A DNA stretch of 56,109 nucleotides from a virus. Its lineage: Duplodnaviria > Caudoviricetes. The number at the start of each line of letters is the position of its first letter. The first letter of the stretch is position 1. Where the stretch lies: positions 1 through 56,109 of the IMG/VR virus record IMGVR_UViG_3300037420_000316. One strand, given 5' to 3'. The notes below the pieces were generated by a model. The model was not told the DNA's origin, ran no database searches, and worked only from the letters and a program-made list of their open reading frames with translations. This document shows, in pieces, positions 11,778 to 56,109 of this stretch. The translations under genes and the position numbers were made by a program.

Positions 11778-11816
11778 TCCCAGTGTTTCAAAGTGAAACA
11801 CCCAAGTCCGCATTCC

Positions 11817-11890
11817 GCTCCCTTAGCTCAGTTGGTTAGAGCACCCGCCTCTTAAGCGGATTGTCACTGGTTCGAGTCCAGTAGGGAGTA
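11817..11890 (+). tRNA. tRNA-Lys(CTT)
   Basis: Acceptor GCTCCCT/AGGGAGT, D arm GCTC-AGTTGGTTA-GAGC, loop CT-CTT-AA, T arm ACTGG-TTCGAGT-CCAGT, A73. Confidence 0.93.
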
Positions 11891-11939
11891 CGGCGATTCC
11901 GCCATTCCATAAACCCTTAGACAAGGAGTCCGCAAACTC

Positions 11940-12281
11940 ATGGCTACTTTCACTCTCGATGACATCCGCGCCGCCGCCGACAAGAAGTACGGCAGCACCG
12001 ACATTCCGCTCGGTGACGGCTCGGTCGTCAAGCTCGTGAACCCCCTTCGCCTGCCGAAGGACAAGCGCGACACGCTCTCCGGTATCGGTGAGCGCATGGA
12101 GGTCGAGGGTGTCGACCAGGCCGACGTTCTGGCCGACGCGCTCCGGGCTGCGGCTGCGTCCGCGACCGAGGTCGAGAAGCTGATCTCCGAGATCGGCGGC
12201 GACCTGGCCGTCCTGGTGACGCTGTTCGAGCACTACACGAACGGTGTCCAGGCGGGGGAAGCCTCGGCCTCGCAGGACTGA
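11940..12281 (+). CDS. Tail assembly chaperone (short form)
   Basis: FTLDDIRAAADKKY, LVNPLRLPK; between major tail and tape measure genes. Confidence 0.88.
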   Translation: MATFTLDDIRAAADKKYGSTDIPLGDGSVVKLVNPLRLPKDKRDTLSGIGERMEVEGVDQADVLADALRAAAASATEVEKLISEIGGDLAVLVTLFEHYTNGVQAGEASASQD

Positions 12282-12646
12282 TCGACAAGTACGGAGAGGG
12301 GCTGTACCCCGACCTTCTGTTCTACTACGGCGTTGACCTAGTGGACGTGATTGAGGGTCGTGGTCCAGCCCCTCTCTTTGTGCTTCAGCTCATCCAGAGG
12401 CTCCCAGACACATCGCTCACCACCGCATTGGCGTCGGGTGGTGCAGAGCACTTCGGATGGGGTCAGGACCGTCACATGGTCGCTGATCTCTTCGACGCCC
12501 TCTCGTGGAACACCCGCGTCACATGGGGGCCGAAGGCTCCCAAGATTCCGGGTTACCCACGCCCCAAGTCCGAAGACCCCGAGGCGAAGAAGAAGCCGAA
12601 GACGGTCAAGGACCTGTTCAAGAAGTTCACCGCAGGCAAGCACTAA
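11940..12646 (+). CDS. Tail assembly chaperone, -1 frameshifted long form
   Basis: Slippery GGGGGAA at 12254-12260; -1 frame reads GSLGLAGLIDKYGEGLYPDL... to TAA 12646. Confidence 0.85.
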
Positions 12647-12661
12647 CGAAGGAGGTGAAAC

Positions 12662-23032: not shown

Positions 23033-23064
23033 CTGCTGCTTCAGAGTGTTTCAGGTTGAAACAC

Positions 23065-23346
23065 TCACCCAGCCTTCTGCTGCTTCATCGCCTCGATCTC
23101 CTCGATGGTCATGATCTTCGACTTGGCGCGAGGCCGACCCGCCGTGGTCTTCTTGGCAGCCGCCTTCTTCGTCGTCGCCCGAGGAGTTGCCGCCTTGGTC
23201 ACCAGTGCCAGCAGGTCCTCCATCGGCTTCCGGTGAGCCTCGCACAGGTCCAATCGCTGCTTCTTCTGCCCCTGCCGGACCTCATAGGTAGACAGGCCCT
23301 CCTGCGCCCCGCACTTGTCGCACACGGTCACTGTCACTCGAGCCAT
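23065..23346 (-). CDS. Lsr2-like small basic protein
   Basis: MARVTVTVCDKC...RLDLCEAH...LL resembles the Lsr2 N-terminal dimerisation domain; Lys/Ala-rich tail. Confidence 0.6.
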   Translation of the reverse strand: MARVTVTVCDKCGAQEGLSTYEVRQGQKKQRLDLCEAHRKPMEDLLALVTKAATPRATTKKAAAKKTTAGRPRAKSKIMTIEEIEAMKQQKAG

Positions 23347-23527: not shown

Positions 23528-23980
23528 ATGCCAGGCAGCAAGATCCAGAACGAGCAAGAGGTCCTGAAGTGGTTCGCAGAGGGGCGGACCTATCAGTGGA
23601 TGGTCGAGAAGTACCGTGAGAAGTACAAGATCGAGACCACGATCTCGATGTGGGGGAACTTCCGTCGCCGCCACGGCCTCGACCGACGCATGGCGTGGGA
23701 CGACCAGCTCATCCCGTGGCCGGTCAAGGTCGAGCACCGCTACAGCTGGCCGATCCTCATGCTGCGCAAGGAGGCCCGCCGTCGAGCTGGCCTGCCCCTG
23801 ACCGCGGACGCCGAGCATGAGGTGGACGCCTGGCTGGCCGGCATGGAGCGCGACGGCACCGTCCTTCACTACGACCCCGACACCGAGCAGGGCTGGTTCT
23901 ACGTCCCTCGGCGCAAGGGGGTCGACACGGACATCATCCGCCACCCTGAGGGGGCCACGGGTCGCCGTAAGGCGGGATGA
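23528..23980 (+). CDS. Immunity repressor (L5 gp71 / BD-phage type)
   Basis: N-terminal HTH-like region GRTYQWMVEKY..TTISMWGNFRRR, IPWPV..H, VLHYDP, GWFYVPR...D.DIIR. Confidence 0.85.
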   Translation: MPGSKIQNEQEVLKWFAEGRTYQWMVEKYREKYKIETTISMWGNFRRRHGLDRRMAWDDQLIPWPVKVEHRYSWPILMLRKEARRRAGLPLTADAEHEVDAWLAGMERDGTVLHYDPDTEQGWFYVPRRKGVDTDIIRHPEGATGRRKAG

Positions 23981-38072: not shown

Positions 38073-38073
38073 C

Positions 38074-39412: not shown

Positions 39413-39417
39413 TCGGG

Positions 39418-42799: not shown

Positions 42800-42817
42800 G
42801 TTGTGGTGGCCTTCCTC

Positions 42818-43485: not shown

Positions 43486-43588
43486 CCCTCCGACTCTCCT
43501 TTCAGTCAGTGTTTCAAGCTGAAACACTTGGGATCGGTGGGGCAGGGGCCACCACTCCCCCACCCCACCGGGTCTCTCAGTTACCCAC

Positions 43589-44404: not shown

Positions 44405-44447
44405 CCCGGTCGTTCCTTGCGATGTCTCTAAGTTACACCATAGGCTC

Positions 44448-44960
44448 TCAGTTTGCCACCTGAGCCGCCGACACCTTCTTCCGCCGCTTGATCTCGCGGT
44501 CGAGGTAGAACGCGGCCTTCTCGAGATCCTCGAGCGGCTTGCCCTTGTAGTCGCAGCGAGCCACGTACTTCACGACGTTGCCGAGGAAGTAGGGCAGGTT
44601 CCAGTCCTCGATGGCGTCGATCACCTCGATGGTGCCGAAGTTGTAGTGCGGCGGGTGGTTCACCATGTCCAGATCGTCGTCGCCGGACAGGATCTCGCGG
44701 AGCTTGGCGAGCGCCTCCTCAGAGAGGCGGGTGTCCTCCGCAGACAGGTCCTCCTCGATCACGTAGAGGTGCGTGTCGTCGTAGGACACGGCGTAGACGT
44801 TGAAGCCCATCCGCTCGGTGAAGTAGGTGTCGATCTCGCCGACCTCCACCTTCGCTCCGGTCGGGATGCAGTGGCTTGCGATCTCCACGTATTCGGCGGT
44901 CTTGTCGCCGATGACGAACGCCATCTGGCCGTCCTCGAACTTGCGGTCGGTCATGCTCAC
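44448..44960 (-). CDS. DUF3310 (T7 gp1.7 / SaV-like) domain protein
   Basis: DMVNHPPHY..IEVIDAI..GNVVKYVAR..KG..LEDLEKA.FYL. Confidence 0.82.
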   Translation of the reverse strand: MSMTDRKFEDGQMAFVIGDKTAEYVEIASHCIPTGAKVEVGEIDTYFTERMGFNVYAVSYDDTHLYVIEEDLSAEDTRLSEEALAKLREILSGDDDLDMVNHPPHYNFGTIEVIDAIEDWNLPYFLGNVVKYVARCDYKGKPLEDLEKAAFYLDREIKRRKKVSAAQVAN

Positions 44961-45421
44961 GCTGCCTCCTGCTGCTTGATGATGGAACCGCCGACCATCT
45001 CGAGGTGGGCCGGCTTAACGCAGAGCCGGTTGTCACACGTCTGTCGGATGCGTGCCCCCTTCGGGATCGCGCCGAAGGCGATCTCCCACGCGAAGCGGTG
45101 GGCGGTCGTGTTCACGCCGCGGTTCTTGCACTGGCCGTAGCCGGTGTTCAGGACCGTTCCCGTCCAGATCCAGCACCGTGCCGTCTTGTGGACGCGGTTG
45201 AGGAATCGCTCGTAGGAGGTGGCTCCGGGGGTGAGGGGGTGGCCGGCTCGGACGAGCTCGGACTTCGTGTACTGGCGGATGGGGCGGTCGGCGTCGAATG
45301 TGCCGTGAGTGACCATGCGGTCACGGTGTCCCGCGCAGAGCTCCTCTGCGATCCAGAACGTCACGGCACGACCACACCTCTCCCCCTTGCTGTTCTCGAC
45401 CCTGCACGTGGCAGTGGACAT
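44957..45421 (-). CDS. HNH-family protein, possibly catalytically degenerate
   Basis: CWIWTG..GYG..AHRFAWE..IRQTCDNRLCVKPAHL. Confidence 0.75.
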   Translation of the reverse strand: MSTATCRVENSKGERCGRAVTFWIAEELCAGHRDRMVTHGTFDADRPIRQYTKSELVRAGHPLTPGATSYERFLNRVHKTARCWIWTGTVLNTGYGQCKNRGVNTTAHRFAWEIAFGAIPKGARIRQTCDNRLCVKPAHLEMVGGSIIKQQEAA

Positions 45422-45801
45422 CAGGCGACTCCCTTCCAGGTCCTGCGGTGGACGATGTCCCCCACGGTGTTGTGGCGAACTCCGAACTCTCGAGCGAGCT
45501 GACTGGGGCGCTCGCCCTGGGCGTGCCGGGAACGGATCTCCCGCACGTTGTCCTCGGTCAGGATTGCGGGCCGGATCTTCGGCAGGCTCCGGTAGGCGGC
45601 TCTCGCCTCCTCGAACATGCCGGCGAGCACCTGCTCGTGGGTGTAGTCGGCGTAGGGCCTGTCAGCGGCCACGAACAGCGTCTCCAGCCACACCCGGACC
45701 CCGGCCCGGTCGGCGAACTCGCCGTTGCTCAGCATCTCCTCGAGCAGGTCCCAGTCGAGGATCTCCTCGATCCCGCTGGTGAACTCCTCTTCCTGCATCA
45801 C
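45421..45801 (-). CDS. HTH DNA-binding protein
   Basis: LTEDNVREIR..PSQLAREFGV..NTVGDIV.RRTWK. Confidence 0.72.
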   Translation of the reverse strand: MMQEEEFTSGIEEILDWDLLEEMLSNGEFADRAGVRVWLETLFVAADRPYADYTHEQVLAGMFEEARAAYRSLPKIRPAILTEDNVREIRSRHAQGERPSQLAREFGVRHNTVGDIVHRRTWKGVA

Positions 45802-45876
45802 GTTGTCTGCGCCCGGACGAGCAAGCGTCCCGAGAAGCCGCAGGGTTCCTTCGATGTTGATGGTCGTTCTCCCCTC

Positions 45877-47367
45877 TCAGTTACCCAGCAGGTGCTGGGT
45901 GAGTGCCTTCTGGAGCAGCGGAGGGACGGCGTTGCCGACCTGCTCGTGCTGCTTGGTCTTCGTGCCCTGCCACGGGTAGTCCGGGGCGAAGGACTGAAGG
46001 ACTCCTGCCTCCTCGACGGAGACGCGGATGCCGTCGTTGCGGCTCTTGGTGCTGCCGTTGAAGCGGTTGGCGTTGGCACCGGGCATGGTCACCAGACCAC
46101 GACCAGCGATCACGGGAGCCGGCCTGTCCATCGGCCAGCCGAGGTCGAACTCCGTGCCGCTCTGGTTGTTCACCCGCGGCTCGACCTCCTTGATGAGCTC
46201 CTCCCGGTTGACCCACCGGAAGTTCCCGTTGTCCATCGAGGCGGTGAGCGTCGGCGAGGGGGCGTCGACCGGACGGACGCAGCCGTTCTTGTTCCGCACG
46301 TCGCCCATGTGGGTGACCTCGTTGCCCTCGCGGTCGTGGATCTTCCACGCCTTCGTGTTGCCGGTGACGGTCGGAGCGGGCAGGTCGCAGTCGCGCTGCT
46401 GCTTGACGACGTTGCCCTCGGCGTCCTCCCACTGTTGGCCCGTCTCGACGTAGAGGTTCCCGAACATCTGGCTGTCGCGCAGCGGGTGGTCCTCGGGCTG
46501 GTCGATCCACCGACCCTCGGCACGCTCCTTCGCGATGGTCTTTCGGGAGCCAGAGCCGCCGATGACCTGCGGGTCCGTTCCGCCAGCCCCGCAGCCGGGG
46601 GCAACGGTCGGGTACGGACGGTGCGTCATGCCCCACTGAAGGGCCTCGGCCATGCTGACCCACGGAGCCACGTCCGGGTCCAGCTTCTCGGGAGAGCGGG
46701 TGTGGTACTTGGAGTGCGTCGGGACCGGAGCGGTGACCTCGCCCTCGATCGAGGCCAGGAGGATCGCTCGCTTGCGGGTCTGCGGCACGCCGAACTGCTC
46801 GGCCTGCACGTTGCCGGTCCACACGGAGTAGCCCCACGACTCGAGGACCTCCGCGATGGCCTCCCAGATCGGGAGCGCCGCGGGGACCTGCTCGAGCATC
46901 ACGTACTCGGGGGTCAGGTCGAAGATCCAGCGCATGACCTCGAAGGTCAGCGGCGACCGCTCGTCGGAGGCGTCGGCCTCGAGCGTGTCCATGAGCGACG
47001 GGATGAGGTCTCGGGCCTCGCCCCACGTCGTCGCCAGGCCGGAAGCCTGCGAGAGGGCCTGCACGGCGTTGAGCAGCGACTCGAGGTCCTCGCGGCCCTT
47101 GCCCTTGCCGGCGTTGGAGAGACCCTGGCACGGCGGGCTGCCCTGAACCAGCGTCTTCAGGTAGGCGAGAAGGAACTCCTCCCTGACCAACAGGGGGTCG
47201 AGCAGGCGAACGTCCTGATGGATGACGGTGTGTCCTGCGGCTCGAGCGGTGGCGACAGCAGCATCGTCCCACTCGACAGACACGACGCGGCTGACGCCTG
47301 CCTGCTTGATGCCCGTAGCGCTTCCTCCGGGGCCACCGAAGAGCGTGAGGGCTTGGATCTCGGTCAT
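45877..47367 (-). CDS. DNA cytosine-C5 methyltransferase
   Basis: LFGGPGG (I), GSPPCQ (IV), LEQV (VI variant), PQTRKRAIL (VIII), LQSF (IX), QVGNAVPP (X). Confidence 0.9.
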   Translation of the reverse strand: MTEIQALTLFGGPGGSATGIKQAGVSRVVSVEWDDAAVATARAAGHTVIHQDVRLLDPLLVREEFLLAYLKTLVQGSPPCQGLSNAGKGKGREDLESLLNAVQALSQASGLATTWGEARDLIPSLMDTLEADASDERSPLTFEVMRWIFDLTPEYVMLEQVPAALPIWEAIAEVLESWGYSVWTGNVQAEQFGVPQTRKRAILLASIEGEVTAPVPTHSKYHTRSPEKLDPDVAPWVSMAEALQWGMTHRPYPTVAPGCGAGGTDPQVIGGSGSRKTIAKERAEGRWIDQPEDHPLRDSQMFGNLYVETGQQWEDAEGNVVKQQRDCDLPAPTVTGNTKAWKIHDREGNEVTHMGDVRNKNGCVRPVDAPSPTLTASMDNGNFRWVNREELIKEVEPRVNNQSGTEFDLGWPMDRPAPVIAGRGLVTMPGANANRFNGSTKSRNDGIRVSVEEAGVLQSFAPDYPWQGTKTKQHEQVGNAVPPLLQKALTQHLLGN

Positions 47368-47439
47368 GTACTTCCTCTCAGTTGCCCATCCGGGCGAAGA
47401 AGGAGGCGGGTGTTTCAGCTTGAAACACCCGCCTCGTCT

Positions 47440-47658
47440 CTACTTGGTCAGGGTGGTCTGCATCGTGTGATTGAACGGTGAGGCCATGAACGCCTCGCGG
47501 ACCGTCTCTACGTCTCGCTCGACCTGCGGCTCCGGGTGGCCGGCAAGGTAGTCCTGCTCCATCTCCCACGGCAGGTTCACGAGGTCGACCTCGACCTCCA
47601 CCCTGCCGTCATCGGAGACGGAGACCGTCGCCTTGGGACGCACTTCGTACTTGCGCAT
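47440..47658 (-). CDS. Hypothetical protein
   Basis: AAGGA RBS; downstream of promoter at 47694-47722. Confidence 0.6.
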   Translation of the reverse strand: MRKYEVRPKATVSVSDDGRVEVEVDLVNLPWEMEQDYLAGHPEPQVERDVETVREAFMASPFNHTMQTTLTK

Positions 47659-47693
47659 CGGTGATCCTTCCTTCGTGGTGGCTGGCGTCGCCA

Positions 47694-47722
47694 AGCCTAT
47701 CAGTTACACACCGAGGTCGCAA
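47694..47722 (-). promoter_or_regulatory. Sigma70-type promoter with operator in the spacer
   Basis: TTGCGA-17 nt-TAGGCT; 15-bp motif at 47697-47711. Confidence 0.6.
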
Positions 47723-47723
47723 C

Positions 47724-48584
47724 CTACTCCACCGGCTGGACGGCGACCTGGGTGACCTCGTACCGGAGGATGTCGTTGGCCTCGAGGTGGTCGCTGAAAC
47801 CGAAGCCGATGTTGGGCGAGCTGATCTCGGCGTGGTCGGAGATCGCCTTCTGCACATCGGTCAGCGTCCGGCCAGCACTCCCGCCCACCACGCGCACGGT
47901 GGCCTCGACCTCAACCATGAAGATCGCCCGCACCTCCTCGAACACCGGCTCCAGCTCGAGGCGGCGCAGCAGGTCGTTGATGTCCTCACTGTCGACCAGG
48001 TACTCCTCAGCCCATCCGATGATCTCTTCGCGCAGCGCGGCCTCGTTGCGGGTCAGGTCGGTGATCTGGCCGTTCAAGAGGACCGTCTCCCGCTGGAGCG
48101 ACTCGGTGTCAGCCCGAAGCGCGGCGCAGCGACGGACCTCCTCCGACTCGCTGGCATGCGCCCGCTCGACCTCGTTGGTCAGCGCCACGATCCGGTCGTC
48201 CTTGCGGGCCACGATGGCGACGTGCTGGGCGACGGACATGAGCTCGCCGTTCGTGCCGAGCGGGACCGGCTCGTCGGGCCACTCGTTCAGCGAGGCGGGG
48301 AGGTAGGGGGCGGGGTCGGCGGTCTCGGTCATGGTGCTCTCCTCTTCGGTGGTGGTGGTGATGGCGTTGACGAGGCTCTCCTTCTCGAAGAGCCACATGG
48401 GGCCGTGGTCTCGCGACTCGCTGATGACGACCTGGCCGTTCACCATGCGCCAGAGGGCGATGCCGCCTCCGCACTCGGGGCACGTGCCGTCCTGGTCGTT
48501 CCAGATCTCGAGCGTCGTCGTGTCGTCGGCCTTGTGGCCGCAGGCGATGCAGACGGCGAAGTGGATGCCGTGGTACGTGGTCAT
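47724..48584 (-). CDS. Hypothetical protein (Zn-ribbon N-terminus, coiled coil)
   Basis: CIAC...CPEC; GAGGAG RBS; possible internal start MTETAD. Confidence 0.65.
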   Translation of the reverse strand: MTTYHGIHFAVCIACGHKADDTTTLEIWNDQDGTCPECGGGIALWRMVNGQVVISESRDHGPMWLFEKESLVNAITTTTEEESTMTETADPAPYLPASLNEWPDEPVPLGTNGELMSVAQHVAIVARKDDRIVALTNEVERAHASESEEVRRCAALRADTESLQRETVLLNGQITDLTRNEAALREEIIGWAEEYLVDSEDINDLLRRLELEPVFEEVRAIFMVEVEATVRVVGGSAGRTLTDVQKAISDHAEISSPNIGFGFSDHLEANDILRYEVTQVAVQPVE

Positions 48585-48613
48585 GTCAGTCTCCTCTCAG
48601 TTGCCTACCCGGC

Positions 48614-49435
48614 TCAGGCGATCTGCTCGAGCGGGTCGGGCTGGTTCGGCACGCGGCGGATCTCGACCTCGTAGGCGCTGGCGTAGACGCCGGCCACCTC
48701 GTCCCAGCCGTAGCCGAACGCGCCCTTGTCAGTGGTGAGCTCGTCGCGCTTCAGCCGCAGGACCCCCTCGAGCTGGTGCTCGCAGTAGCCGTCGCCCATG
48801 TAGGGGTTCCCGATGTAGAGGAACGGGTTGACGATCTCCACGAAGTCGTCGTTCATCGTGTCGTAGAGGTCGGACGGGCTGACGGCGTAGACGACCTGGA
48901 CGTTGGCACAGAAGCCGGGGTGGACGACCTCGGCGAGCGTGTCCTGCACGGCCTTAATGTTCGCCTCGGTGTTCTCGAGGCCGAGGATGTCGAGCACCTC
49001 TCCGAGGCCGGCGTCGTGGTCGATGTCTCCGAACAGGTGGCGCATGAGCACCATGCCGGTGGAGCCGGCGAGGTCGCGGATCGGGTTGGAGGTGTCGCGG
49101 TCCTCGATGGCGAAGCGCAGCTCGTCGTAGAAGTCCGTGCTCTCGAACGCCTCGCGGACAGCCTCGGCGATCTCGTAGCCATGAACCTCGGTCCACTCGC
49201 GCTCGGTCTGCTCCATGACCTCCTTGCGGTGGTAGTCCGCGCCCTCGTAGCGGGTCTCGTCCAGCCACTCCTCGAGCGACTCGTCCAGCGCCTCCCAGTC
49301 CTTGCCGGCGAGGGCGTCGACCTGCTCGTCGGTGAGGCCGTCGCGGTAGTCGACGTGGACCAGCTCGTACGAGCGGTCGAGGTTGGCCTTGCAGTCGTTG
49401 TAGAAGGTGGCGCGAAGGTCGGTGGTGTCGGTCAT
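48614..49435 (-). CDS. Acidic hypothetical protein
   Basis: 273 aa, Asp/Glu-rich; AAGGAG RBS after palindrome at 49460. Confidence 0.75.
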   Translation of the reverse strand: MTDTTDLRATFYNDCKANLDRSYELVHVDYRDGLTDEQVDALAGKDWEALDESLEEWLDETRYEGADYHRKEVMEQTEREWTEVHGYEIAEAVREAFESTDFYDELRFAIEDRDTSNPIRDLAGSTGMVLMRHLFGDIDHDAGLGEVLDILGLENTEANIKAVQDTLAEVVHPGFCANVQVVYAVSPSDLYDTMNDDFVEIVNPFLYIGNPYMGDGYCEHQLEGVLRLKRDELTTDKGAFGYGWDEVAGVYASAYEVEIRRVPNQPDPLEQIA

Positions 49436-49508
49436 GGCGTGCTCCTTGGAGGGTGGTGAGTGTTTCGTGTTGAAACACTGGGTGGTGGTGGTGGTGGTGG
49501 TCGAACCA

Positions 49509-49538
49509 ATCGTATCTCAGTTACACACCGAGTGGCAA
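49509..49538 (-). promoter_or_regulatory. Sigma70-type promoter with operator in the spacer
   Basis: TTGCCA-18 nt-TACGAT; 15-bp motif at 49514-49528. Confidence 0.65.
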
Positions 49539-49581
49539 ACTGAGTGGTGCCCCGAATCTTCCCCAAGCTTCAGGGCACCAC

Positions 49582-49647
49582 TGGTGCCTGCTGACGGACT
49601 CGAACCGTCACGGATGCACCCCACATGCATCCGGCTCCAGCACAGGC
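49582..49647 (-). ncRNA. D-arm-less tRNA-like RNA ending in ACCA
   Basis: GCCTGT-GCTGGAGC-CGGATGCA-TGTGGGG-TGCATCCG-TGACGG-TTCGAGT-CCGTCA-GCAGGC-A-CCA. Confidence 0.72.
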
Positions 49648-49652
49648 TCCGC

Positions 49653-50204
49653 TCAGTAGCGGAGGATCTTGCCGTAGAGGCTCACGAAGGAGGTACCGAA
49701 GCCGTTACCCCTTCTCCTGGCGTCCCAGAAGCAATGCTTCGAGTCCTCCTGGCGGCAGGGAGCGAGCAGGAACGCCGCCCCGTTGTTGAACTCGGCGTAG
49801 AGCCGGTCCCCGCCCCTGCCCAGCGTGCGAGTCAGTGCCGGCGTCGACACCGGGTGGTCGGCGCAGCGGATGCGCACGGACCCGTTGCCGTATCTCCTGC
49901 CGGCGCAGGTCTGGGCCGGCTGGTTGAGGTCACCCTCGTCGCCGTGCTCAGGGATCGACGGCTGGTTGCAGGGGGCCTGCGGGAGCTGGCCGCACTGGGG
50001 GTGGTGCTCGAGGCTCGGCAGTCCCGGCTGGGTCGGCAGCGTGGGCACGTCGGCGCACTGGCTCGGGTCGACCTGCGAGTGCCGCTCACAGTCGCTTCCC
50101 CCGTCGCCGGGGTCGTCGGCGTACGCCGCAGGCGTCTGGCCGAGAGCCAGGGTGGTGAACAGTGCTCCGAGGAGCACGGTGAGCAACTTGGTGGTGATCT
50201 TCAC
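49653..50204 (-). CDS. Secreted/surface protein (signal peptide, Pro/Cys-rich)
   Basis: MKITTKLLTVLLGALFTTLALG..AYA; PCRQEDSKHCFWDA..GNG.G.SFV. Confidence 0.7.
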   Translation of the reverse strand: MKITTKLLTVLLGALFTTLALGQTPAAYADDPGDGGSDCERHSQVDPSQCADVPTLPTQPGLPSLEHHPQCGQLPQAPCNQPSIPEHGDEGDLNQPAQTCAGRRYGNGSVRIRCADHPVSTPALTRTLGRGGDRLYAEFNNGAAFLLAPCRQEDSKHCFWDARRRGNGFGTSFVSLYGKILRY

Positions 50205-50242
50205 GTTGACACTTCCTCTCAGTTAGCTTTGCTGTGGTAGTT

Positions 50243-50359
50243 CTACTTGGTGGGCGGCTCGGCGTCCAGGTTTCGCTCAGACTCGAGCAGGAGCGCCGAG
50301 ACCAGGACGAGCAGGACGGTGGCGAGCGTCAGTACGCCGATGATGAAGCCCGAGCTCAT
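50243..50359 (-). CDS. Small membrane peptide (38 aa)
   Basis: MSSGFIIGVLTLATVLLVLVSALLL; ATGA overlap. Confidence 0.5.
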   Translation of the reverse strand: MSSGFIIGVLTLATVLLVLVSALLLESERNLDAEPPTK

Positions 50360-50607
50360 GCGGGACGCTCCCGGTCGAGGCAGGTGGCCTCATGCCATGC
50401 GACCAGCTCGCGCCACTGGGCCGGCGAGCAGGGCCTCTCGATCACCTGGCCCACGGCGTCGTGCCAGTACCAGAGCACCTCGTCGGCCTCGTCGTACTCG
50501 TACTCCATCCCGCAACCGAACTCGGCACCGTCCTCGGCGTCCTCGTAGCAGTGGGCGTAGGTGAGGGTCTCGATCTCCTCGTCCGGGTGGGTAAACACGG
50601 CTACCAC
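50356..50607 (-). CDS. Acidic hypothetical protein
   Basis: 83-aa ORF overlapping the upstream stop. Confidence 0.6.
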   Translation of the reverse strand: MVAVFTHPDEEIETLTYAHCYEDAEDGAEFGCGMEYEYDEADEVLWYWHDAVGQVIERPCSPAQWRELVAWHEATCLDRERPA

Positions 50608-51026
50608 CTCTCCACGAGGTCGGCCACGTCGGAGCTGACTGCGCGCAGGCCCCAGAGCGCCTTCTTGAGGTTGCCCTCGTGCTCGTCGGCCACGGCCACG
50701 GTGGCGTCGTTGAGGTACTGCCGTGCCCGCTCGAGGGCCTCAGGGAGATCCAGGCTGCCCTCGAGGTCGTCCTCGTCCTCGGCGTCCGGGTCGATCAGGT
50801 CGTGCTCGGTGAGCTGGATGCCGCAGTTGCGGCACCAGATGTCTCCGACATAGACGGTGCCCTCGTCCTGCACCTCGTAGCTCTCCCCCGTGTACTCCAC
50901 GTCTGCCGTGGTGTCGCCGGCCTCACGGGTGAGGCGGACGGGGTACATGATCGAGGCAGCCTCGTCGGACCAGAGGTTGTCGCCGCTCCCGCAGCGGGGG
51001 CAAGCGAGCCGCGTGGTGGTGCTCAT
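50601..51026 (-). CDS. Zn-ribbon hypothetical protein
   Basis: CPRCGS...WCRNCG; AGGAG RBS after palindrome at 51043. Confidence 0.7.
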   Translation of the reverse strand: MSTTTRLACPRCGSGDNLWSDEAASIMYPVRLTREAGDTTADVEYTGESYEVQDEGTVYVGDIWCRNCGIQLTEHDLIDPDAEDEDDLEGSLDLPEALERARQYLNDATVAVADEHEGNLKKALWGLRAVSSDVADLVERW

Positions 51027-51112
51027 GTCGTGCTCCTGTCTGGTGTTTCAGGTTGAAACACTCGGTCTGGGGTGCGGGCCTCTCAGTTGCCCAAGAGGCC
51101 CGCACGAAGTTG

Positions 51113-51994
51113 TCAGTCGAACAGCGGGTCCATGCCGGCTCGGTTGGCGTCCTCGATCTCCGCGGCCCACTCCTCGAGCTCGGCCAGCGTGTAGTCGGAG
51201 TCCATGTAGAGCTGGCGCTCGCGGATGTGGTCCACGTCAACCTCGATGGTGACGTTATTGGTGTAGACCTCCCACTCGGCCTCGAAGAGGTCCATCATCC
51301 AGGGGCGCTCGCCGTAGGGGTCGAGCATCTTGGCGAAGAGGTACTCGATGCGGAACTCCCCGTCGTACTGGGCGTGCCACTCCGGGTCGTTGATCCGGCT
51401 CTCCACAAACGAGAGGAAGCCGTCGCACGAGCGGTAGTGCTGCTGCACCCACTCGTAGGCGTCGAACTCCGGGGTGAGGCGTCGGAGCGTCTCCGGGTGG
51501 ACAGTGAGCTCCATCTCGAAGCCGTCCGAGACGAAGTTGTAGTAGGCCGGCGACCACGAGTCCACGACCGTGCCCTCGAGGGCACCGAAGTCCTCGGACC
51601 AGTAGTGCTCGCCCTTCTCCTCGTCCCAGATCAACTCACGCTGCGGACTCGAGCCGATCTCGTTCCAGAGCTCCCCCACGATCCAGTCACAGAGCACCTC
51701 GGCGAAGTCGCGGACGATCTGCTTGTGGTCGTACGACCAGTTGAAGTCGTCGTACTCGAGGGTGACGCCGGCCTTGCTCGTCCCGAACTGGTCCTGGAAG
51801 TCCTCGTCGCTCATCTCGTTCTGGAAGTACTCCTGCTGCGAGTTGCACCAAGAGTCGCCGTTCACGAGCTGGTAGGTGTCGGGGCTGATGTTGTAGGCCC
51901 GCCAGTTGCTCGGAATGATCTTGAGCGTGACGGTGCCGTCCTCGTTGAGGCGGTCGGCGGCGTCGAACGGGGGAAGGTCAGTGATGGTGGTCAT
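51113..51994 (-). CDS. Acidic hypothetical protein
   Basis: 293 aa; WSPAYYNFVSD, SCDGFLSF; GAGG RBS after palindrome at 52014. Confidence 0.75.
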   Translation of the reverse strand: MTTITDLPPFDAADRLNEDGTVTLKIIPSNWRAYNISPDTYQLVNGDSWCNSQQEYFQNEMSDEDFQDQFGTSKAGVTLEYDDFNWSYDHKQIVRDFAEVLCDWIVGELWNEIGSSPQRELIWDEEKGEHYWSEDFGALEGTVVDSWSPAYYNFVSDGFEMELTVHPETLRRLTPEFDAYEWVQQHYRSCDGFLSFVESRINDPEWHAQYDGEFRIEYLFAKMLDPYGERPWMMDLFEAEWEVYTNNVTIEVDVDHIRERQLYMDSDYTLAELEEWAAEIEDANRAGMDPLFD

Positions 51995-52096
51995 CGTGCT
52001 ACCTCTCGGTTCGGTGTTTCAGGTTGAAACACTCGGTGGTGGTGGTCGGTGAAGCTGATGGATGAATCCTCTCACTTTGCCACGCGAGTGGCAACC

Positions 52097-52450
52097 TTAG
52101 AGGTTCGGCGGATTCAGCCAGACTCGCTCAGCCGGCCAGACCTCCTCGAGCTCGTAGAGGTGGGCCTCGAGCCAGCACGTCTCCGGGCTGTCGGAAGGGC
52201 ACGGGTAGGGCTTGAGTCCCTCGGGTGTGTGGACCTGGTGGTTCCCGAAGCACTCGAGGGCCTCGGCAGGCAGCTCGACACGCAGCAGTCGAACTCGAGC
52301 AGGGTCATTGCCAGCCCAGGCCGACTTCTCGGCCTCGAAGAGCTCGAGGGCGTCGTCGCGGCTAGGGAGCCACTGGAACCCCCCGCCGCCCTGCTCGTCG
52401 CCGTTCCAGTACACCCACGAGACGACGTAGATGGTCTCCACCTCGGTCAC
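52097..52450 (-). CDS. Hypothetical protein
   Basis: GTG start 52450 overlapping the upstream stop; GGGGFQW. Confidence 0.58.
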   Translation of the reverse strand: MTEVETIYVVSWVYWNGDEQGGGGFQWLPSRDDALELFEAEKSAWAGNDPARVRLLRVELPAEALECFGNHQVHTPEGLKPYPCPSDSPETCWLEAHLYELEEVWPAERVWLNPPNL

Positions 52451-52539
52451 TTCCCGTACTTCTGCCGGCGGACCTCGCGGCGGCGCAGCGTCTCGGCCTT
52501 GCCGTTGCGGCTGGACTTGTAGGTGGTGTGCTTCGCCAT
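52447..52539 (-). CDS. Small basic peptide (30 aa)
   Basis: MAKHTTYKSSRNGKAETLRRREVRRQKYGK; AGGAG RBS after palindrome at 52573. Confidence 0.55.
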   Translation of the reverse strand: MAKHTTYKSSRNGKAETLRRREVRRQKYGK

Positions 52540-52651
52540 GATCGGCTCCTGTTTCAGTGGTGGTGGGTAGTGGTGTTTCAGGTTGAAACACTCGGTCGGA
52601 CTGGCGACCGAACGCGATCCTCACAGTTACCCATGAGGGTCACGCAAAGCG

Positions 52652-52993
52652 TCAGTCCTCGTCCTCGTCGTGATCCAGCTCGTCCGGGTCACGGAGGATC
52701 GCGAGGATCAGGAGGTTGGCGTCCCTCGAGCCGAAGCCGCACCAGTCGGCCTCGCCCCAGTTGGCGTAGTGCGCCACGCCGCCGACCGGCTCGTTCTCGA
52801 ACCAGTACTCCCCGCTCTCGGCGTCCCCCATGTCCACCTGGACCTCGAAGTGGGGACCTCCCGTGCAGAACAGGATGTCGACGTACTTGCCGTTGATCTC
52901 GACACTCAGCGGGTCGTCCGACGTGAGGCCCTCTGGCCCCGTGTCCTCTGCCCGTTCGATGTAGCGGTCTAGGAACTCTCGTGCTTTGCTCAT
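52652..52993 (-). CDS. Acidic hypothetical protein (probably leaderless)
   Basis: LFCTGGPHFEV; ATG 6 nt after -10 TAGGCT. Confidence 0.7.
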   Translation of the reverse strand: MSKAREFLDRYIERAEDTGPEGLTSDDPLSVEINGKYVDILFCTGGPHFEVQVDMGDAESGEYWFENEPVGGVAHYANWGEADWCGFGSRDANLLILAILRDPDELDHDEDED

Positions 52994-52999
52994 GGCATA

Positions 53000-53029
53000 A
53001 GCCTACCTCTCAGTTGTTCACAGTGGCAA
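53000..53029 (-). promoter_or_regulatory. Sigma70-type promoter with operator in the spacer
   Basis: TTGCCA-18 nt-TAGGCT; 15-bp motif at 53007-53021. Confidence 0.65.
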
Positions 53030-53038
53030 GGTTAGAGG

Positions 53039-53335
53039 TCAGTCAACGTGTGCGAGGAACGTCCGCACGGCCTCAGCGCCCGACTCGTACTCGAGCACGA
53101 TCTGGTGGTCAGGGTCCTCGGCGTCATAGATGTGGACGACGACCACGCCGGCCTCGCTCCACGAGTCGTGACACTTCACGTACAGCTCGGTGCCGATGAA
53201 CGTGCCTGCCAGCACGATCATGCCGCCAGCGTGGTGCTCGGCGTACGGCGCAGCCCGGACAGCCGTGAGCGTGTCCTTGAGCGTGGCGGCAGTGTCGGGA
53301 TTCTGGGCGAGGAACCGCTCCATCATGGTGTCCAT
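53039..53335 (-). CDS. Hypothetical protein
   Basis: GGAGAGG RBS; EHHAGGM motif. Confidence 0.6.
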   Translation of the reverse strand: MDTMMERFLAQNPDTAATLKDTLTAVRAAPYAEHHAGGMIVLAGTFIGTELYVKCHDSWSEAGVVVVHIYDAEDPDHQIVLEYESGAEAVRTFLAHVD

Positions 53336-53943
53336 CACTCGCCCGCCTCTCCGAAGAGGATCACCGGGATCTCGAGAAACGTGTCTAGGGACTCGTCCTC
53401 GGAGTCGAAGAACCGGATCAGGGGCCGGCGCATGTCGTCCTGGTCGTAGCCGATGAACTCGTGGGCCGCGCCTTCCGGGGCGTCCGGGCCGACGACCGGC
53501 ATGAGCACCGCGGCGTAGCCACCAGCAGCATCCCAGACCTGCCCACCGAGATACCGGGCGAGGGCAAGCGTCTGGCCGTAGTAGTTCGGCTCCCATGACG
53601 GCTCGTCGTAGTCGTACTTGACCTGCTCCCAGAGCGGCTCCTGGCGGAACTGGTCGCAGTTGAAGCGCCCAGTGGCCGCGCCCATCGGCTCGAGGGCCTC
53701 GGGCCTGCCGTACCGCAGCCAGAGGTGGATCGCGTCCTGGAAGAGGACGACCTCCTCGAGGGCGAGGTCCATCGCGTCGTCGTCGCACATGCCGCCGTAG
53801 CAGTTGGCGTCCACGTAGTCGTGGAGCTTCGCGAAGTCGTCCACATCGGCAGGCACGATGCCGGCCTCGATGTCGTGCAGGATCTCGCTCTTGCCGCGCT
53901 GGATGCGGTCAGCGAGTTCGTTCAGGGTCATGCGGCGGTCCAT
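53335..53943 (-). CDS. Hypothetical protein
   Basis: GIVP..V.DF..LHDYVDAN.YGG; AAGGAG RBS after palindrome at 53969. Confidence 0.72.
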   Translation of the reverse strand: MDRRMTLNELADRIQRGKSEILHDIEAGIVPADVDDFAKLHDYVDANCYGGMCDDDAMDLALEEVVLFQDAIHLWLRYGRPEALEPMGAATGRFNCDQFRQEPLWEQVKYDYDEPSWEPNYYGQTLALARYLGGQVWDAAGGYAAVLMPVVGPDAPEGAAHEFIGYDQDDMRRPLIRFFDSEDESLDTFLEIPVILFGEAGE

Positions 53944-53995
53944 GTCGATCTCCTTGTGGTGATGGTCAGTGTTTCAGGTTGAAACACTCGGTTGG

Positions 53996-54325
53996 TCAGT
54001 AGTCGAGCGCGGCAACTTCGGTGCATGACACGCCGGGGTGAACGTCCTGCGGGCCGTGGTGGTCGAGCGGGCCGGTGCCGAACTCCACGTCCTTGCACAT
54101 CGGGCACGACTCGAAGAACCGTTCGATCCATCGGGGCGAGAGCACTCCCCCGCAGCGGATCGTTACCTCGCGGTCCACGAACACCTGCTGGCCGGTCGAG
54201 TGGAAGATCATGACGACCGTGGCCGCGGTGTCCTCATCGGTGTAGACGCTCTGGGCGAACGTCACACCCTTCTCATTCACGCGGTACCGCGTCATCGGCC
54301 AAGAGCCGACCTTGAAGATGTCCAT
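53996..54325 (-). CDS. Hypothetical protein
   Basis: GGGAG RBS after palindrome at 54344; CPMC. Confidence 0.6.
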   Translation of the reverse strand: MDIFKVGSWPMTRYRVNEKGVTFAQSVYTDEDTAATVVMIFHSTGQQVFVDREVTIRCGGVLSPRWIERFFESCPMCKDVEFGTGPLDHHGPQDVHPGVSCTEVAALDY

Positions 54326-54402
54326 GCTGTCTCCCGTGTCTCGGTGTTTCAGGGTGAAACACTCGGTGGTGGTGGTCGGGTGGTGTTCAACTTGCTGACG
54401 CA

Positions 54403-54432
54403 AGTCTATCAGTTACACACCCCAGGTGGCAA
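54403..54432 (-). promoter_or_regulatory. Sigma70-type promoter with operator in the spacer
   Basis: TTGCCA-18 nt-TAGACT; 15-bp motif at 54406-54420. Confidence 0.68.
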
Positions 54433-54450
54433 CCTTAGAGGTCGTCCCAC

Positions 54451-54519
54451 GAGTCATGCGACTCACCCGAGTCATGGGAGTCATGCGAGTCATGGGAGTC
54501 ATGCGAGTCACCCGCGTCA
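54451..54519. repeat. Tandem 9-bp repeat, 7 units plus a partial
   Basis: GAGTCATGC GACTCACCC GAGTCATGG GAGTCATGC GAGTCATGG GAGTCATGC GAGTCACCC GCGTCA. Confidence 0.9.
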
Positions 54520-54537
54520 GGGGTGAGATGGTGCCGG

Positions 54538-54825
54538 CTAGTAGCGCGGCAGGATGGCCGTAGCCATGCCGCCATGCACGCACATAGCAATGCAGGCAGC
54601 GGCCTCCGCGGCGGCACCGTAGCTCGGGAACGCTTCCCTCGAGACGTTCACGCGACTCCACACCCGCACGATCCGACCCTCCTTCACGTCGTCGTGCAGG
54701 CTCGTGGACACGTCGAACGAGTACACGGGCGGGTCCAGGTCGCCGGCCTCGAGCCCACGTCCGAGCTCACTCGTGGGACGCGCCGGCCTAACCGACCCCT
54801 CCCCCGGTCTCCTATCCACACTCAC
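54538..54825 (-). CDS. Hypothetical protein
   Basis: AGGAG RBS and GTG after palindrome at 54867. Confidence 0.55.
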   Translation of the reverse strand: MSVDRRPGEGSVRPARPTSELGRGLEAGDLDPPVYSFDVSTSLHDDVKEGRIVRVWSRVNVSREAFPSYGAAAEAAACIAMCVHGGMATAILPRY

Positions 54826-54996
54826 GTCTGTCTCCTGTTCTCTACCGACTAGGTAGGTCTGTTTCAGTGTTTCAACGTGAAACACTCTGAGCTCCACCCC
54901 GCGTCCAGGCGCGTGGCCGTGCCGGCTCGAGCTGGTCCAGGCCGGACATGCCAGTAGGCCCGACCCCCGAAGGGATCGGGCCTTCCGGCCTGCGGG

Positions 54997-55668
54997 TCAG
55001 TCCTGCCGCATCTCGAGCGAGCCGAGCATGTCCGCGACCTCGGCCTGCTGGTCGAGCGAGAGGTTCGGCCACGCCGCGATCAGGACCCCCATTGCATCCT
55101 GCGCCTGCGCCCATGCGGTGCGCTTCGGCTGCGCCACGGGCTTGGAAGCCTTCGGCGTCTCAGCCTTCGGCGCGTCACCCTTCGGCGCGGCAGGCTTGCC
55201 CTTCCCGCGCTTGGAGTCACGCGACTGGGACACACCGCGCTTGTCCGTGGTGGTGGTGGCAGGCGTGGCGTCCGCTGCGTCTCCGGTCGCTTCGGCGACC
55301 TCAGCGGCGACCTCGGCACCCTTCGCCTTCACGCGACGGTTCACGGTGGCAACGGACGTGTCCGTGGCCTTGGCCGCATCCCTCTGGGACACGCCGAAGT
55401 GGACGAACACAACGGCGACCCACTCGCGCTCACTCTTGGTCGCACCCTTCGGCAGGGTCGCTTCCAGCGTGGCCGTGGCGTACTCCGTCCACGACGAGAA
55501 TCCGCGTGCGGCGTGCAAGTCGGCCGCCTTCGCCGCCTTGATCGCCTTCACGAGCGACCGACGCGCCGTGAGCATGTCACGCACACCCTTCACGAGCGCG
55601 CTGTGCATGTCCTCAGCCGCCTCAGTCGTGAGGGTGGTGGTGGTCGCGGGGGTGGTGGTGGTGGTCAT
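54997..55668 (-). CDS. HTH-containing basic DNA-binding protein
   Basis: GFSSWTEY, GVSQRDAAKATDTSVATVNRRVK; Lys/Ala/Pro-rich tail; first gene of the right arm. Confidence 0.72.
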   Translation of the reverse strand: MTTTTTPATTTTLTTEAAEDMHSALVKGVRDMLTARRSLVKAIKAAKAADLHAARGFSSWTEYATATLEATLPKGATKSEREWVAVVFVHFGVSQRDAAKATDTSVATVNRRVKAKGAEVAAEVAEATGDAADATPATTTTDKRGVSQSRDSKRGKGKPAAPKGDAPKAETPKASKPVAQPKRTAWAQAQDAMGVLIAAWPNLSLDQQAEVADMLGSLEMRQD

Positions 55669-56109
55669 GGTGACTTCCCTTCGGTGGGGGTGGTGGCCCG
55701 CTGTCTGCGGTGCCGATGAGAGAAAGGTAGTCCTCTCAGTTACACACCGCAAGTCCTTTCGGCAGATTGATCCAAGAATCTTTCGATTGAGCGTGGATCA
55801 CGAGTGTTTCAGGTTGAAACACACGGCATAGGTCACCCCCACGGCATCCCTTCCCTTGTGTGCGTTGTGTGCGTTGCGCGCGGTGTGTGGTGACGGTTCG
55901 GACTGAAACGCTCGAGTGTTTCAACCTGAAACACTCACCCCTTTCAGCCTCCCCTCCCCTTGTGTTCCAGGCCGAACGCACCGCGTGAAAGTCGACCGAT
56001 CAGCTCAGCTTTCAGCCGCCGGCAGTGAGGATGCATGTCTATGCATGGCGGTGCATGAGTATGCGTTCGACGGCGTGGGGTATGACCCCCGCCACGAGGC
56101 CACCCGCAC

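Follow-up and report, generated by a model that had tools for sequence, protein, structure and literature searches.

A 19-base palindrome recurs in this phage genome with almost no change in its arms, which raises the question of what reads it: a protein bound to DNA, a factor acting on the transcript, or ParB of the host. The window, i.e. the whole stretch of 56,109 nt analysed here, is a complete 56.1-kb R4-like (Arquatrovirinae) temperate Streptomyces phage. An earlier note had reported 13 palindromes with near-invariant arms and a variable centre, 11 of them in the right arm and mostly ~15–45 nt upstream of a start codon, and had offered three explanations, namely an operator for a dimeric phage helix-turn-helix (HTH) protein, sites engaging host ParB, and an RNA hairpin. 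Its description of the array is reproduced. A pattern search of the whole window with GTGTTTCA-N3-TGAAACAC at up to 2 mismatches recovers the same coordinates, giving 13 matches (12 perfect, and 49460 with a single mismatch) and none in 100 dinucleotide-preserving shuffles. Every copy consists of two 8-bp arms and a 3-base centre, with plus-strand centres as previously given, and no decayed copies are present in the window, the same 13 being the only matches at up to 3 mismatches.

Substitutions affect 1 of 208 arm positions vs 7 of 39 centre positions (Fisher p = 1e-5), centre changes being scored against the nearer of GGT or ACC. The common centres are inverted relative to transcription in three copies (43509, 54867, and 55916), and neither a G-U pair nor a compensatory change occurs in the arms of any of the 13. 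Four DNA sequencing runs hold long contig pieces almost identical to the window, with no usable variation at the palindromes. As for known regulator boxes, those of BldD, GlnR, Crp, Rex, LexA, and Zur were dismissed by eye against their consensus sequences, as was an Lsr2-type silencer in the role of specific reader, since a perfect 16-base requirement is unlike a general reader of AT-rich DNA.

The right arm (43.5–55.9 kb), which is coding on the minus strand, does hold 11 of the 13 copies. The reported distance to start codons also holds on that strand: 9 of these 11 are found 16–42 nt upstream of starts with a ribosome-binding site, and the remaining two precede the start of the first right-arm gene, at 55668, by 135 and 247 nt. 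The copies are as follows, with centres read on the plus strand:

11783..11801, palindrome, centre AAG; follows the major tail gene (11159–11716) by 66 nt and also comes after a G+C-rich hairpin, with tRNA-Lys (11817–11891) 15 nt further on
23046..23064, palindrome, centre GGT, which reads ACC on the opposite strand; directly adjoins the stop codon of 23065–23418, a minus-strand gene, and has a strong terminator-like hairpin beside it
43509..43527, palindrome, centre AGC; 23 nt ahead of a minus-strand GTG start (43485)
47410..47428, palindrome, centre GCT; caps a 15-bp hairpin, 11 nt past the 47440–47658 stop and 42 nt ahead of a methyltransferase start (47367)
49460..49478, palindrome, centre TGT; the only arm mismatch, ~30 nt past the promoter-like site 49538–49509 and 24 nt ahead of the 49435 start
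51043..51061, palindrome, centre GGT; 16 nt ahead of the 51026 start
52014..52032, palindrome, centre GGT; 19 nt ahead of the 51994 start
52573..52591, palindrome, centre GGT; 33 nt ahead of the 52539 ATG, which opens a 30-codon ORF that an overlapping gene follows
53969..53987, palindrome, centre GGT; 8 nt past the 53996–54325 stop and 25 nt ahead of the 53943 start, with no promoter-like site seen between that stop and that start
54344..54362, palindrome, centre GGG; ~40 nt past the promoter-like site 54432–54403 and 18 nt ahead of the 54325 start
54867..54885, palindrome, centre ACG; 111 nt after the stop of 54997–55668 and 41 nt before the GTG at 54825, abutted by an extra half-site TGAAACA at 54860
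55804..55822, palindrome, centre GGT; 135 nt ahead of the 55668 start
55916..55934, palindrome, centre ACC, an inversion of the common one; 247 nt ahead of the 55668 start, with 112 bp from its centre to that of the 55804 copy

According to a rough gene map, in which 14.5% of the genome is non-coding, 11 of the 13 copies lie outside every longest-start ORF. The copies at 43509 and 54344 fall inside such ORFs, yet upstream of ribosome-site-supported starts, and all 13 are non-coding if these starts are used. The copy at 47410 is the sole one of the right arm within a long hairpin, the tail of which is T-poor; terminator scans of 38000–56109 flagged an intrinsic terminator (a G+C-rich stem followed by a T run) at 0 of the 11 right-arm copies.

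The reading we prefer, with confidence that falls a little short of even, is that the palindromes form an operator or roadblock set for a dimeric phage-encoded DNA-binding protein, and among the three earlier explanations the dimeric HTH operator is the best supported. The invariant arms, the free centre, and the absence of G-U or compensatory changes count in its favour. Because the arms are under strong in-place selection and the centre is not, a reader appears to act on each copy, and the 8-3-8 geometry is that of classical operators of HTH dimers. Two copies fall outside mRNA leaders: 11783 precedes a tRNA gene, and 23046 comes after a gene. In addition, a single promoter-like element, flagged by no scan, is visible by eye before 55668, and both 55804 and 55916 are upstream of it. 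We infer that the palindromes act as DNA, and likewise the identity of their reader and whether, and when, it lowers or raises expression.

Under this operator reading, a two-fold symmetric, sequence-specific phage protein would recognise the palindromes as double-stranded DNA, with one subunit per 8-bp arm and the 3-bp centre left unread; the arm centres are 11 bp apart, about one helical turn. Produced after infection, the reader would occupy palindromes located between early promoters and ribosome-binding sites, and the occupied sites would block RNA polymerase, so that expression of early genes is damped or timed. The most likely reader is an HTH protein, which would also damp or time its own gene via the two copies upstream:

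54997..55668, minus strand, candidate palindrome reader; 223-aa HTH protein, the gene that opens the leftward arm

This gene has two copies on its upstream side and one on its downstream side, and a search of 50,697 phage records gives 0 matches to the protein. Its predicted homodimer scores 0.70 vs 0.02 for the best control, with at least 60% of contacts in agreement between runs and a partner pLDDT of at least 69. Of 30 proteins solved as same-chain pairs 20 reach the mark of 0.70, as does 1 of 23 with a single-chain structure, counts that are only roughly valid, the alignment being our own. Weak HTH matches (~residues 88–118) fall outside the listed dimer interface. Four close homologues have 41–58% identity to it. 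Among 49 remote homologues, HTH_23 is found in 39 and HTH_38 in 36, and 5 match a ParB-like PHROG. As for the protein itself, no Pfam family is matched above the cut-off, a PDB search with the single sequence gives 0 matches, the best hit of a PDB profile search (E = 0.0059) is to a designed protein, and Foldseek against PDB returns nothing at E ≤0.001. Its likeness to ParB HTH regions is insignificant by both routes (PDB profile E = 0.046; Foldseek E = 2.2), and the protein Atlas places it with generic actinobacterial HTH clusters only. A viral scan with the single sequence finds 0 related loci; with the alignment it finds three distant loci of 30–34% identity, without the palindrome family. 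Two metagenome scans yield no related loci, and a profile search, run without a positive control, does not find the protein in five higher-G+C IMG/VR records that hold one motif copy.

The earlier note had named two further candidates besides this protein, and neither of them fits. The 32082–32825 protein belongs to the core gene set of 172 Streptomyces phage records, and the four relatives examined have no palindrome. The 45421–45801 protein has partial matches only, the best-identity ones among the matches listed lying under annotated HNH endonuclease genes. The lack of phage matches and the predicted homodimer suit the 54997–55668 protein. The reader could be another protein without known relatives, or a host protein, which counts against the operator reading, as does the lack of a Pfam family or a solved structure matching the candidate.

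A separate control system is probably carried by the same genome. Parts of PMC10276819 describe a repressor–stoperator system for phage R4. In the window, an asymmetric motif, GGTGTGTAACTGAG, occurs in 23 copies at up to 3 mismatches, 21 of them co-oriented with the arm that holds them, and it is likely to be the stoperator of this phage family. The features concerned are:

23528..23980, plus strand, immunity repressor homologue (context gene)
54403..54432, minus strand, promoter-like site TTGCCA-18-TAGACT with GGTGTGTAACTGAG in the spacer; upstream of the 54344 copy
49509..49538, minus strand, promoter-like site TTGCCA-18-TACGAT with GGTGTGTAACTGAG in the spacer; upstream of the 49460 copy

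Presumably the repressor homologue reads GGTGTGTAACTGAG and not the palindrome. The stoperators of cluster A mycobacteriophages and R4-like phages resemble the palindromes in being many genome-wide sites in short intergenic gaps; they are able to stop RNA polymerase after initiation, and the window encodes the repressor homologue. However, they are asymmetric and point with transcription, which fits GGTGTGTAACTGAG and not a symmetric palindrome. With GGTGTGTAACTGAG as the likely stoperator, the palindromes would thus constitute a second layer of control beside the repressor–stoperator system of lysogeny. Only two of the four promoter-like sites on the right arm are followed by a palindrome copy, which weighs against the operator reading.

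The main rival, possible but less probable, is that the palindrome works in the transcript, as an 8–9-bp hairpin in the leaders of early cistrons. Such a hairpin might be read by a sequence-specific RNA-binding protein or endoribonuclease of phage or host, or might serve as a protective end after processing, and it would then serve, like the RNA elements of related phages, to cut or stabilise early messages gene by gene, a role that is proposed for both. Phage T7 RNase III sites are the textbook case of early-transcript processing. This explanation, also present in the earlier note, gains support from four relatives (TrvxScott, Amela, Joe, and Caliburn), which carry RNA elements between promoter or stoperator and ribosome-binding site. 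The right arm of TrvxScott contains 10 type II hammerhead matches above the Rfam gathering score on the transcribed strand, and those that could be placed lie between a stoperator or promoter and a ribosome-binding site. For hammerhead arrays in prophages, a role in cutting long transcripts into gene-length mRNAs is proposed in a portion of PMC3088659; a literature search returned nothing relevant on hammerheads or tRNA-like elements in Streptomyces phages. In the other three relatives, a T-arm-like element, read from the gap sequences, occupies right-arm gaps of at least 40 nt (8 of 14 in Amela, 9 of 14 in Joe, and 10 of 14 in Caliburn), and this tRNA-like element shows compensatory changes at 7 of 11 pairs across 28 copies. 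The right arm of the window has a single element that resembles it:

49582..49647, minus strand, tRNA-like element; outer stem, extra arm, T-arm GGTTCGAGTCC, then ACCA

Elsewhere on the arm the palindrome stands where the RNA elements of relatives would be, so that an RNA role for the replacement element is natural, a point that weighs against the operator reading. The hairpin is predicted in all 11 folded contexts with the ribosome-binding site left free, C/A-rich (ACC)n tracts stand beside many copies, and pairing reaches beyond the core at 47410 and 23046. This folding and the extension at 47410 (15 bp), which is relevant to a single strand only, likewise argue against an operator, although phiC31 has such a feature too.

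However, the RNA elements of relatives covary freely, in contrast to the palindromes of the window, whose 13 copies show no covariation or wobble and have variable loops, and most hairpin-binding proteins read the loop. Arms without variation permit no covariation, and an invariant pair by itself says nothing for or against RNA structure. At the gathering score Rfam gives only two tRNA matches in the window and none at the palindromes, and at E ≤5 the stretch 43000–56109 has two unrelated weak matches, TrvxScott with its 10 matches serving as the positive case. The hammerhead arrays of TrvxScott occupy the same slot of the gene map, but the palindrome differs from them in being a plain 8-bp hairpin without catalytic core, Rfam match, or covariation. 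No RNase is recognisable among the scanned window ORFs. At the two predicted promoters the hairpin lies ~25–35 nt from the predicted transcript start, and it would thus not be a 5'-terminal protector without prior processing. The inverted common centres at 43509, 54867, and 55916 also speak against a transcript signal, and the copy before tRNA-Lys and the two copies far upstream of 55668 fit an RNA reading poorly.

Another explanation put forward earlier, the engagement of host ParB, is very improbable. Here, each arm would be a parS half-site, and the palindromes would be parS mimics expanded by one base, 26 half-sites in total with 22 in 12.4 kb, at which host ParB nucleates but the sliding clamp is not properly closed. 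Recruiting or soaking up ParB in this manner would position the phage DNA or disturb host segregation; if true, the phage genome might be tethered in a hyphal compartment, or ParB drained from the host origin during infection. The likeness of the arms is real. According to passages of PMC7383237, consensus parS is the 16-bp TGTTTCAC-GTGAAACA with specificity set by G1 and A6, and a co-crystal figure has one ParB DNA-binding domain on one half-site. The TGTTTCA of the palindrome arms matches 7 of the 8 bases of that half-site; GTTTCA occurs in 25 of 26 arms, and each arm has both specificity bases. Near-perfect conservation of copies, as in the palindromes, is also typical of parS sets. In Pseudomonas aeruginosa, hundreds of single half-sites (GTTCCAC and GTTTCAC) are occupied by ParB in vivo, as stated in a part of PMC5961200.

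Nothing beyond the arms favours ParB, however. The half-sites of parS abut, whereas the TGTTTCA and TGAAACA arms are one base further apart here, and this extra central base breaks the 16-bp register, so the likeness noted earlier extends to the half-site and not to the spacing that defines parS. The occupied half-sites of P. aeruginosa prompt no long-distance spreading (the same part of PMC5961200), and their seventh base is C or T, as opposed to the usual A or G of the palindromes. The four relatives, from Streptomyces hosts, have 0 copies and 0 half-sites, and the palindromes follow gene starts, unlike a centromere-like cluster. Six-frame scans of the whole 56.1 kb give 0 matches to ParB_N (PF02195) and AAA_31 (PF13614), the controls being matched in 11 and 14 of 14 genomes, respectively, in agreement with the earlier statement that no parA or parB gene is visible; the candidate reader is an ordinary HTH protein. 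KorB of plasmid RK2 is an example of a ParB-family protein that uses scattered palindromes near promoters as operators.

It is also improbable that the palindrome has little regulatory role and marks the boundaries of early-gene cassettes that are shuffled, or that it is a small selfish repeat whose own mobilising enzyme maintains its sequence. In T4-type phages, early genes are shuffled by repeated promoter–stem-loop cassettes. Here the genes flanked by copies are without known relatives, the copies at 52014 and 54344 have longer flanks in common (CTCTAAGGTTGCCAC and (ACC)n-CCGA) that suggest duplicated cassettes, three copies have inverted common centres, and one occupies the loop position of a longer hairpin. 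On the other hand, no transposase and no recombinase besides the serine integrase were found among the window ORFs, there are 0 copies inside genes and 0 decayed copies, and the strong in-place selection on the arms but not on the centre points to a reader acting at each copy.

For the operator set that we favour, the closest analogue is the CIR palindromes of phiC31, which we take to be the sites bound by its immunity repressor. phiC31 has 15 copies of a perfectly conserved intergenic palindrome with the core TACTCACGTGAGTA in early and late regions; two are at the repressor gene, one is inside a terminator hairpin, and one is beside a terminator. Both phages are temperate and infect Streptomyces, and in both there are many near-identical intergenic palindromes (15 vs 13), spread over early and late regions and often found tens of bases before a start codon. 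The terminator-associated copies of phiC31 correspond to the same oddities in the window at 47410, 23046, and 11783, within or beside hairpins. Copies at the gene of the regulator itself would have their equivalent here at the candidate reader gene. In contrast, the site sequences are unrelated (TACTCACGTGAGTA having no spacer), and the phiC31 reader is the immunity repressor, whereas the repressor of the window apparently uses GGTGTGTAACTGAG and leaves the palindrome to a second regulator.

If the operator reading is true, this R4-like phage would carry two separate site systems on one early arm, asymmetric stoperators for lysogeny and palindromes, and would offer a compact natural example of layered roadblock control. 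The 19-bp site and the 223-aa protein would then be a candidate orthogonal switch in Streptomyces. More generally, the stretch from early promoter to ribosome-binding site seems to be a slot whose repeated device varies from one member of the subfamily to another, being the hammerhead ribozyme, a tRNA-like element without an Rfam match, or the palindrome. Whether or not these three do the same job would show how early transcripts are handled in these phages.

As for distribution elsewhere, which supports the operator reading, full palindrome sites number 0 in TrvxScott, Amela, Joe, Caliburn, and phiC31, and the right arm has no match in the phage collection by blastn in near and distant modes. 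An exact-pattern scan of IMG/VR gives 23 stretches with at most 2 sites each, and a scan of genome contigs gives at least 122 stretches, with no actinobacterial array among the matches listed. In a low-G+C pair of IMG/VR contigs (L015 and L018), a 67-aa protein is encoded between two copies of the motif; it belongs to no Pfam family, and a comparison with 1087 ORF pieces of the window shows nothing related to it (best E = 1.5).

The palindrome of the earlier note, GTGTTTCA-N3-TGAAACAC, is confirmed at all 13 of the coordinates reported there, with 12 perfect copies and 1 carrying a single mismatch, versus 0 matches in 100 shuffles. Relaxing the search to 3 mismatches over the whole window yields no further copies, and the family thus has no decayed members. 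Relative to the nearer common centre (GGT or ACC), changes affect 1 of 208 arm positions and 7 of 39 centre positions (Fisher p = 1e-5). When the 13 copies are aligned with 30-nt flanks, 15 columns are invariant and 1 nearly so, the flanks sharing little except a 5' CCGA present in five copies. Outside the full sites only 2 lone heptamer half-sites occur (52550 and 54860), each directly downstream of a full palindrome on the minus strand. On the same strand, (ACC)n tracts directly precede several palindromes (49490-49505, 52035-52050, 54365-54385, and others). The most frequent 12-mer of the genome is ACCACCACCACC, with 10 copies.

The window is an entire virus record of 56,109 bp (completeness rating 100%), whose capsid protein shows up to 65% identity to those of Streptomyces phages Amela, Verse, and phiCAM; the four relatives fetched (TrvxScott, Amela, Joe, and Caliburn) all belong to the subfamily Arquatrovirinae. 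Structural, lysis, repressor, replication, and serine integrase genes run rightward at 1.3-38.1 kb, and leftward genes occupy 38.5-55.7 kb, most of those at 47.4-55.7 kb having no family matches. In this right arm, 9 of 11 palindromes precede a start codon with a ribosome-binding site by 16-42 nt (minus strand), and the remaining 2 are 135 and 247 nt upstream of start 55668, that of the first leftward gene. The left-arm palindromes are placed differently: one is found between tRNA-Lys and a hairpin that follows the major tail gene, and the other directly adjoins the stop codon of the gene listed next, beside a strong terminator-like hairpin.

Window 23065-23418, minus strand: small leftward gene flanked by the lysis genes and the repressor, encoding a Lys/Ala-rich tail that contains GRPR

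The product has no Pfam family and by eye resembles Lsr2-type DNA binders; the genes in the corresponding position of TrvxScott and Amela carry the annotation "DNA binding protein".

Apart from the palindrome, the most repeated word of the genome is GGTGTGTAACTGAG, which at up to 3 mismatches occurs at 23 places from 4875 to 55735 (a raw count, including 11720, 26514, 49516, 54408, and 55735). All 11 plus-strand copies fall within 4.9-35.1 kb, and 10 of the 12 minus-strand copies within 39.3-55.7 kb, the exceptions being 23432 and 24201. Promoter-like sites were flagged twice versus 0.8 expected, and our looser scan of the right arm gives 4 of the form TTGCCA/TTGCGA-17/18-TAnnnT, 2 of them followed by a palindrome 25-40 nt on and 2 not. 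The spacers of all 4 sites of the TTGCCA type contain GGTGTGTAACTGAG. One promoter-like site suggests a leaderless early mRNA.

Window 52993-53029, minus strand: promoter-like site TTGCCA-18-TAGGCT, ending 7 nt before ATG 52993

A related word recurs in TrvxScott (CGACACTTGCACACC/GCGACACTTACACAG), and a repressor-stoperator system is described for R4 and its relatives (PMC10276819). ORF 23528-23980 is a full-length match to the PHROG "transcriptional repressor" (E = 1e-62) and retrieves annotated immunity repressors in 172 Streptomyces phage records, with identity up to 60.5%. Given its co-orientation, its presence in promoter spacers, the TrvxScott word, and the R4-type system, the asymmetric GGTGTGTAACTGAG is probably the stoperator of this repressor. 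The palindrome, of which TrvxScott, Amela, Joe, Caliburn, and phiC31 contain no copies, we read as a separate system.

Among the alternatives of the earlier note, an operator for a phage dimer is the best supported, although we put it slightly below an even chance. The palindromes would form a second set of operator or roadblock sites beside the family's stoperators, read as DNA by a putative phage-encoded dimer, probably the 54997-55668 protein. The closest analogue is phiC31 (L157, NC_001978), likewise a temperate Streptomyces phage, with 15 perfect copies of ACTCACGTGAGT (core TACTCACGTGAGTA) from 1226 to 41034, 16 bp long in 13 of the 15. All are intergenic, in early as well as late regions; several precede the next annotated start by 22-85 nt, two are located at the repressor gene, one forms part of a terminator hairpin, and another adjoins a terminator. 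Reportedly, the phiC31 repressor binds these copies, which are known as "conserved inverted repeats". Their centre, TCACGTGA, is identical to that of parS.

As for the reader, three proteins had been proposed earlier, and the one at 54997-55668 emerges as the probable candidate. The phage collection contains no match to it, the 90%-identity clusters contain a single homologue, and a full HMMER scan gives 109 remote ones; among 49 aligned homologues, HTH_23 is found in 39, HTH_38 in 36, and phrog_29861 (function unknown) in 47. In the fold model, mean pLDDT is 74, and a structural search with it gave no significant neighbour. The predicted homodimer scores 0.70 versus 0.02 for the best control, a value attained by 20 of 30 one-chain pairs and 1 of 23 single chains among solved proteins, counts that are only approximate here because a self-made alignment was used. 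With contact agreement of at least 60% between runs and partner pLDDT of at least 69, the prediction supports dimer formation. The predicted interface consists of the long N-terminal helix and C-terminal helices, leaving free the region of the weak HTH matches (about residues 88-118).

The 32082-32825 protein (sigma region 4 domain) is common to 172 Streptomyces phage records and therefore not specific to this phage. The 45421-45801 protein gives partial matches only, the best-identity ones among the matches listed falling under annotated HNH endonuclease genes, and its gene adjoins an HNH gene.

Binding of the palindromes by host ParB, suggested earlier from their likeness to parS, appears very improbable. 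Counting toward this reading, both specificity bases, G1 and A6, of the parS consensus TGTTTCAC-GTGAAACA (PMC7383237) are present in each arm, and ParB can occupy single half-sites in vivo without spreading over long distances (PMC5961200). However, the register is wrong for parS, the seventh base of the half-site is mostly other than the C or T given in PMC5961200, and the copies track gene starts rather than cluster like a centromere. Moreover, the four relatives, phages of Streptomyces hosts, contain no such sites, and, in agreement with the earlier note, ParB_N and ParA-type domains are absent from all frames of the genome.

The main rival, which we consider possible but rather unlikely, is that the palindrome acts at the RNA level, in the slot between early promoter and ribosome-binding site. 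Its odds changed because this slot carries RNA elements in relatives.

TrvxScott (L028, MH669016.1) 39913-48502, minus strand: hammerhead matches of the leftward early arm, by Rfam gathering score
Amela (L151) 43780-48720, minus strand: T-arm elements
Joe (L155) 7047-12152, minus strand: T-arm elements
Caliburn (L156) 4034-11605, minus strand: T-arm elements
Window 49582-49647, minus strand: tRNA-like element ending ACCA, behind gene 49653-50204

In TrvxScott, 10 type II hammerhead ribozymes exceed the gathering score on the transcribed right-arm strand, most (those placeable) between stoperator or promoter and ribosome-binding site. Some overlap annotated gene 5' ends; two tandem matches and two others reach into annotated coding sequences, for which the start may have been called too far upstream. 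Our literature search found no mention of hammerheads in the R4-like group. In Amela, Joe, and Caliburn, the repeated element ahead of early genes consists of an outer stem of 5 bp, the internal loop A-NNGGCA-NNCA, and a tRNA T-arm containing GGTTCGAGTCC, followed by ACT. It occupies 8, 9, and 10, respectively, of 14 right-arm gaps of at least 40 nt, as read from the printed gaps. The 28 aligned copies have 11 pairs, 7 with compensatory changes, and no Rfam match at gathering score; a tRNA-processing enzyme may act on the element. A single tRNA-like element remains in the window, where the palindrome otherwise occupies the slot.

A hairpin is predicted in all 11 contexts folded (of 13 sites), with the ribosome-binding site free; together with the relatives' slot contents, this makes the swap of one RNA device for another a serious rival. 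Against it, the stem is wholly without variation beside a freely varying loop, three copies have inverted centres, about 25-35 nt separate the hairpin from predicted transcript starts, and some copies lie outside mRNA leaders. The phiC31 analogue also removes two would-be RNA arguments, perfect copy conservation and placement inside hairpins.

An RtcB-type ligase, an enzyme that joins RNA ends of the type left by ribozymes and some nucleases, may be relevant to how this phage processes RNA or repairs tRNA.

Window 41597-42799, minus strand: RtcB-type RNA ligase (Pfam E = 3e-117)
Window 40183-41388, minus strand: adjoining AAA ATPase

T-loop-like words flank tRNA-Asn (863-873 and 978-988, plus strand), and a D-arm-like stretch at about 1030-1060 (plus strand) appears to begin another tRNA, uncalled by ARAGORN.

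Pattern scans of IMG/VR and of the listed genome-contig matches, as well as viral and metagenome protein scans, revealed no relatives with the same palindrome system. Two low-G+C IMG/VR records (L015/L158 and L018/L159) have the palindrome twice, 262 bp apart and centred on AAT and AAG, on either side of a 67-aa gene without a known family; one of the two is directly upstream of the TATACT box preceding this gene. Such a position, in an unrelated phage, resembles that of an operator. In records L005 and L012, a second tandem or degenerate copy adjoins the full palindrome. One Bdellovibrionales chromosome (L072, L080, and L082) has three copies, and three Lentzea species (L036, L043, and L078) have one each, possibly a conserved host operator. 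A cassette boundary or selfish repeat trails, as host ParB does, with a low probability.

Contigs of 6.5 and 7.1 kb from two soil or rhizosphere runs (X4 and X6) match window gene 48668-49370 at about 80% identity (47 differences in 227 bases and 52 in 307) and represent a related phage. The window sequence itself is found nearly unchanged in six runs from six studies.
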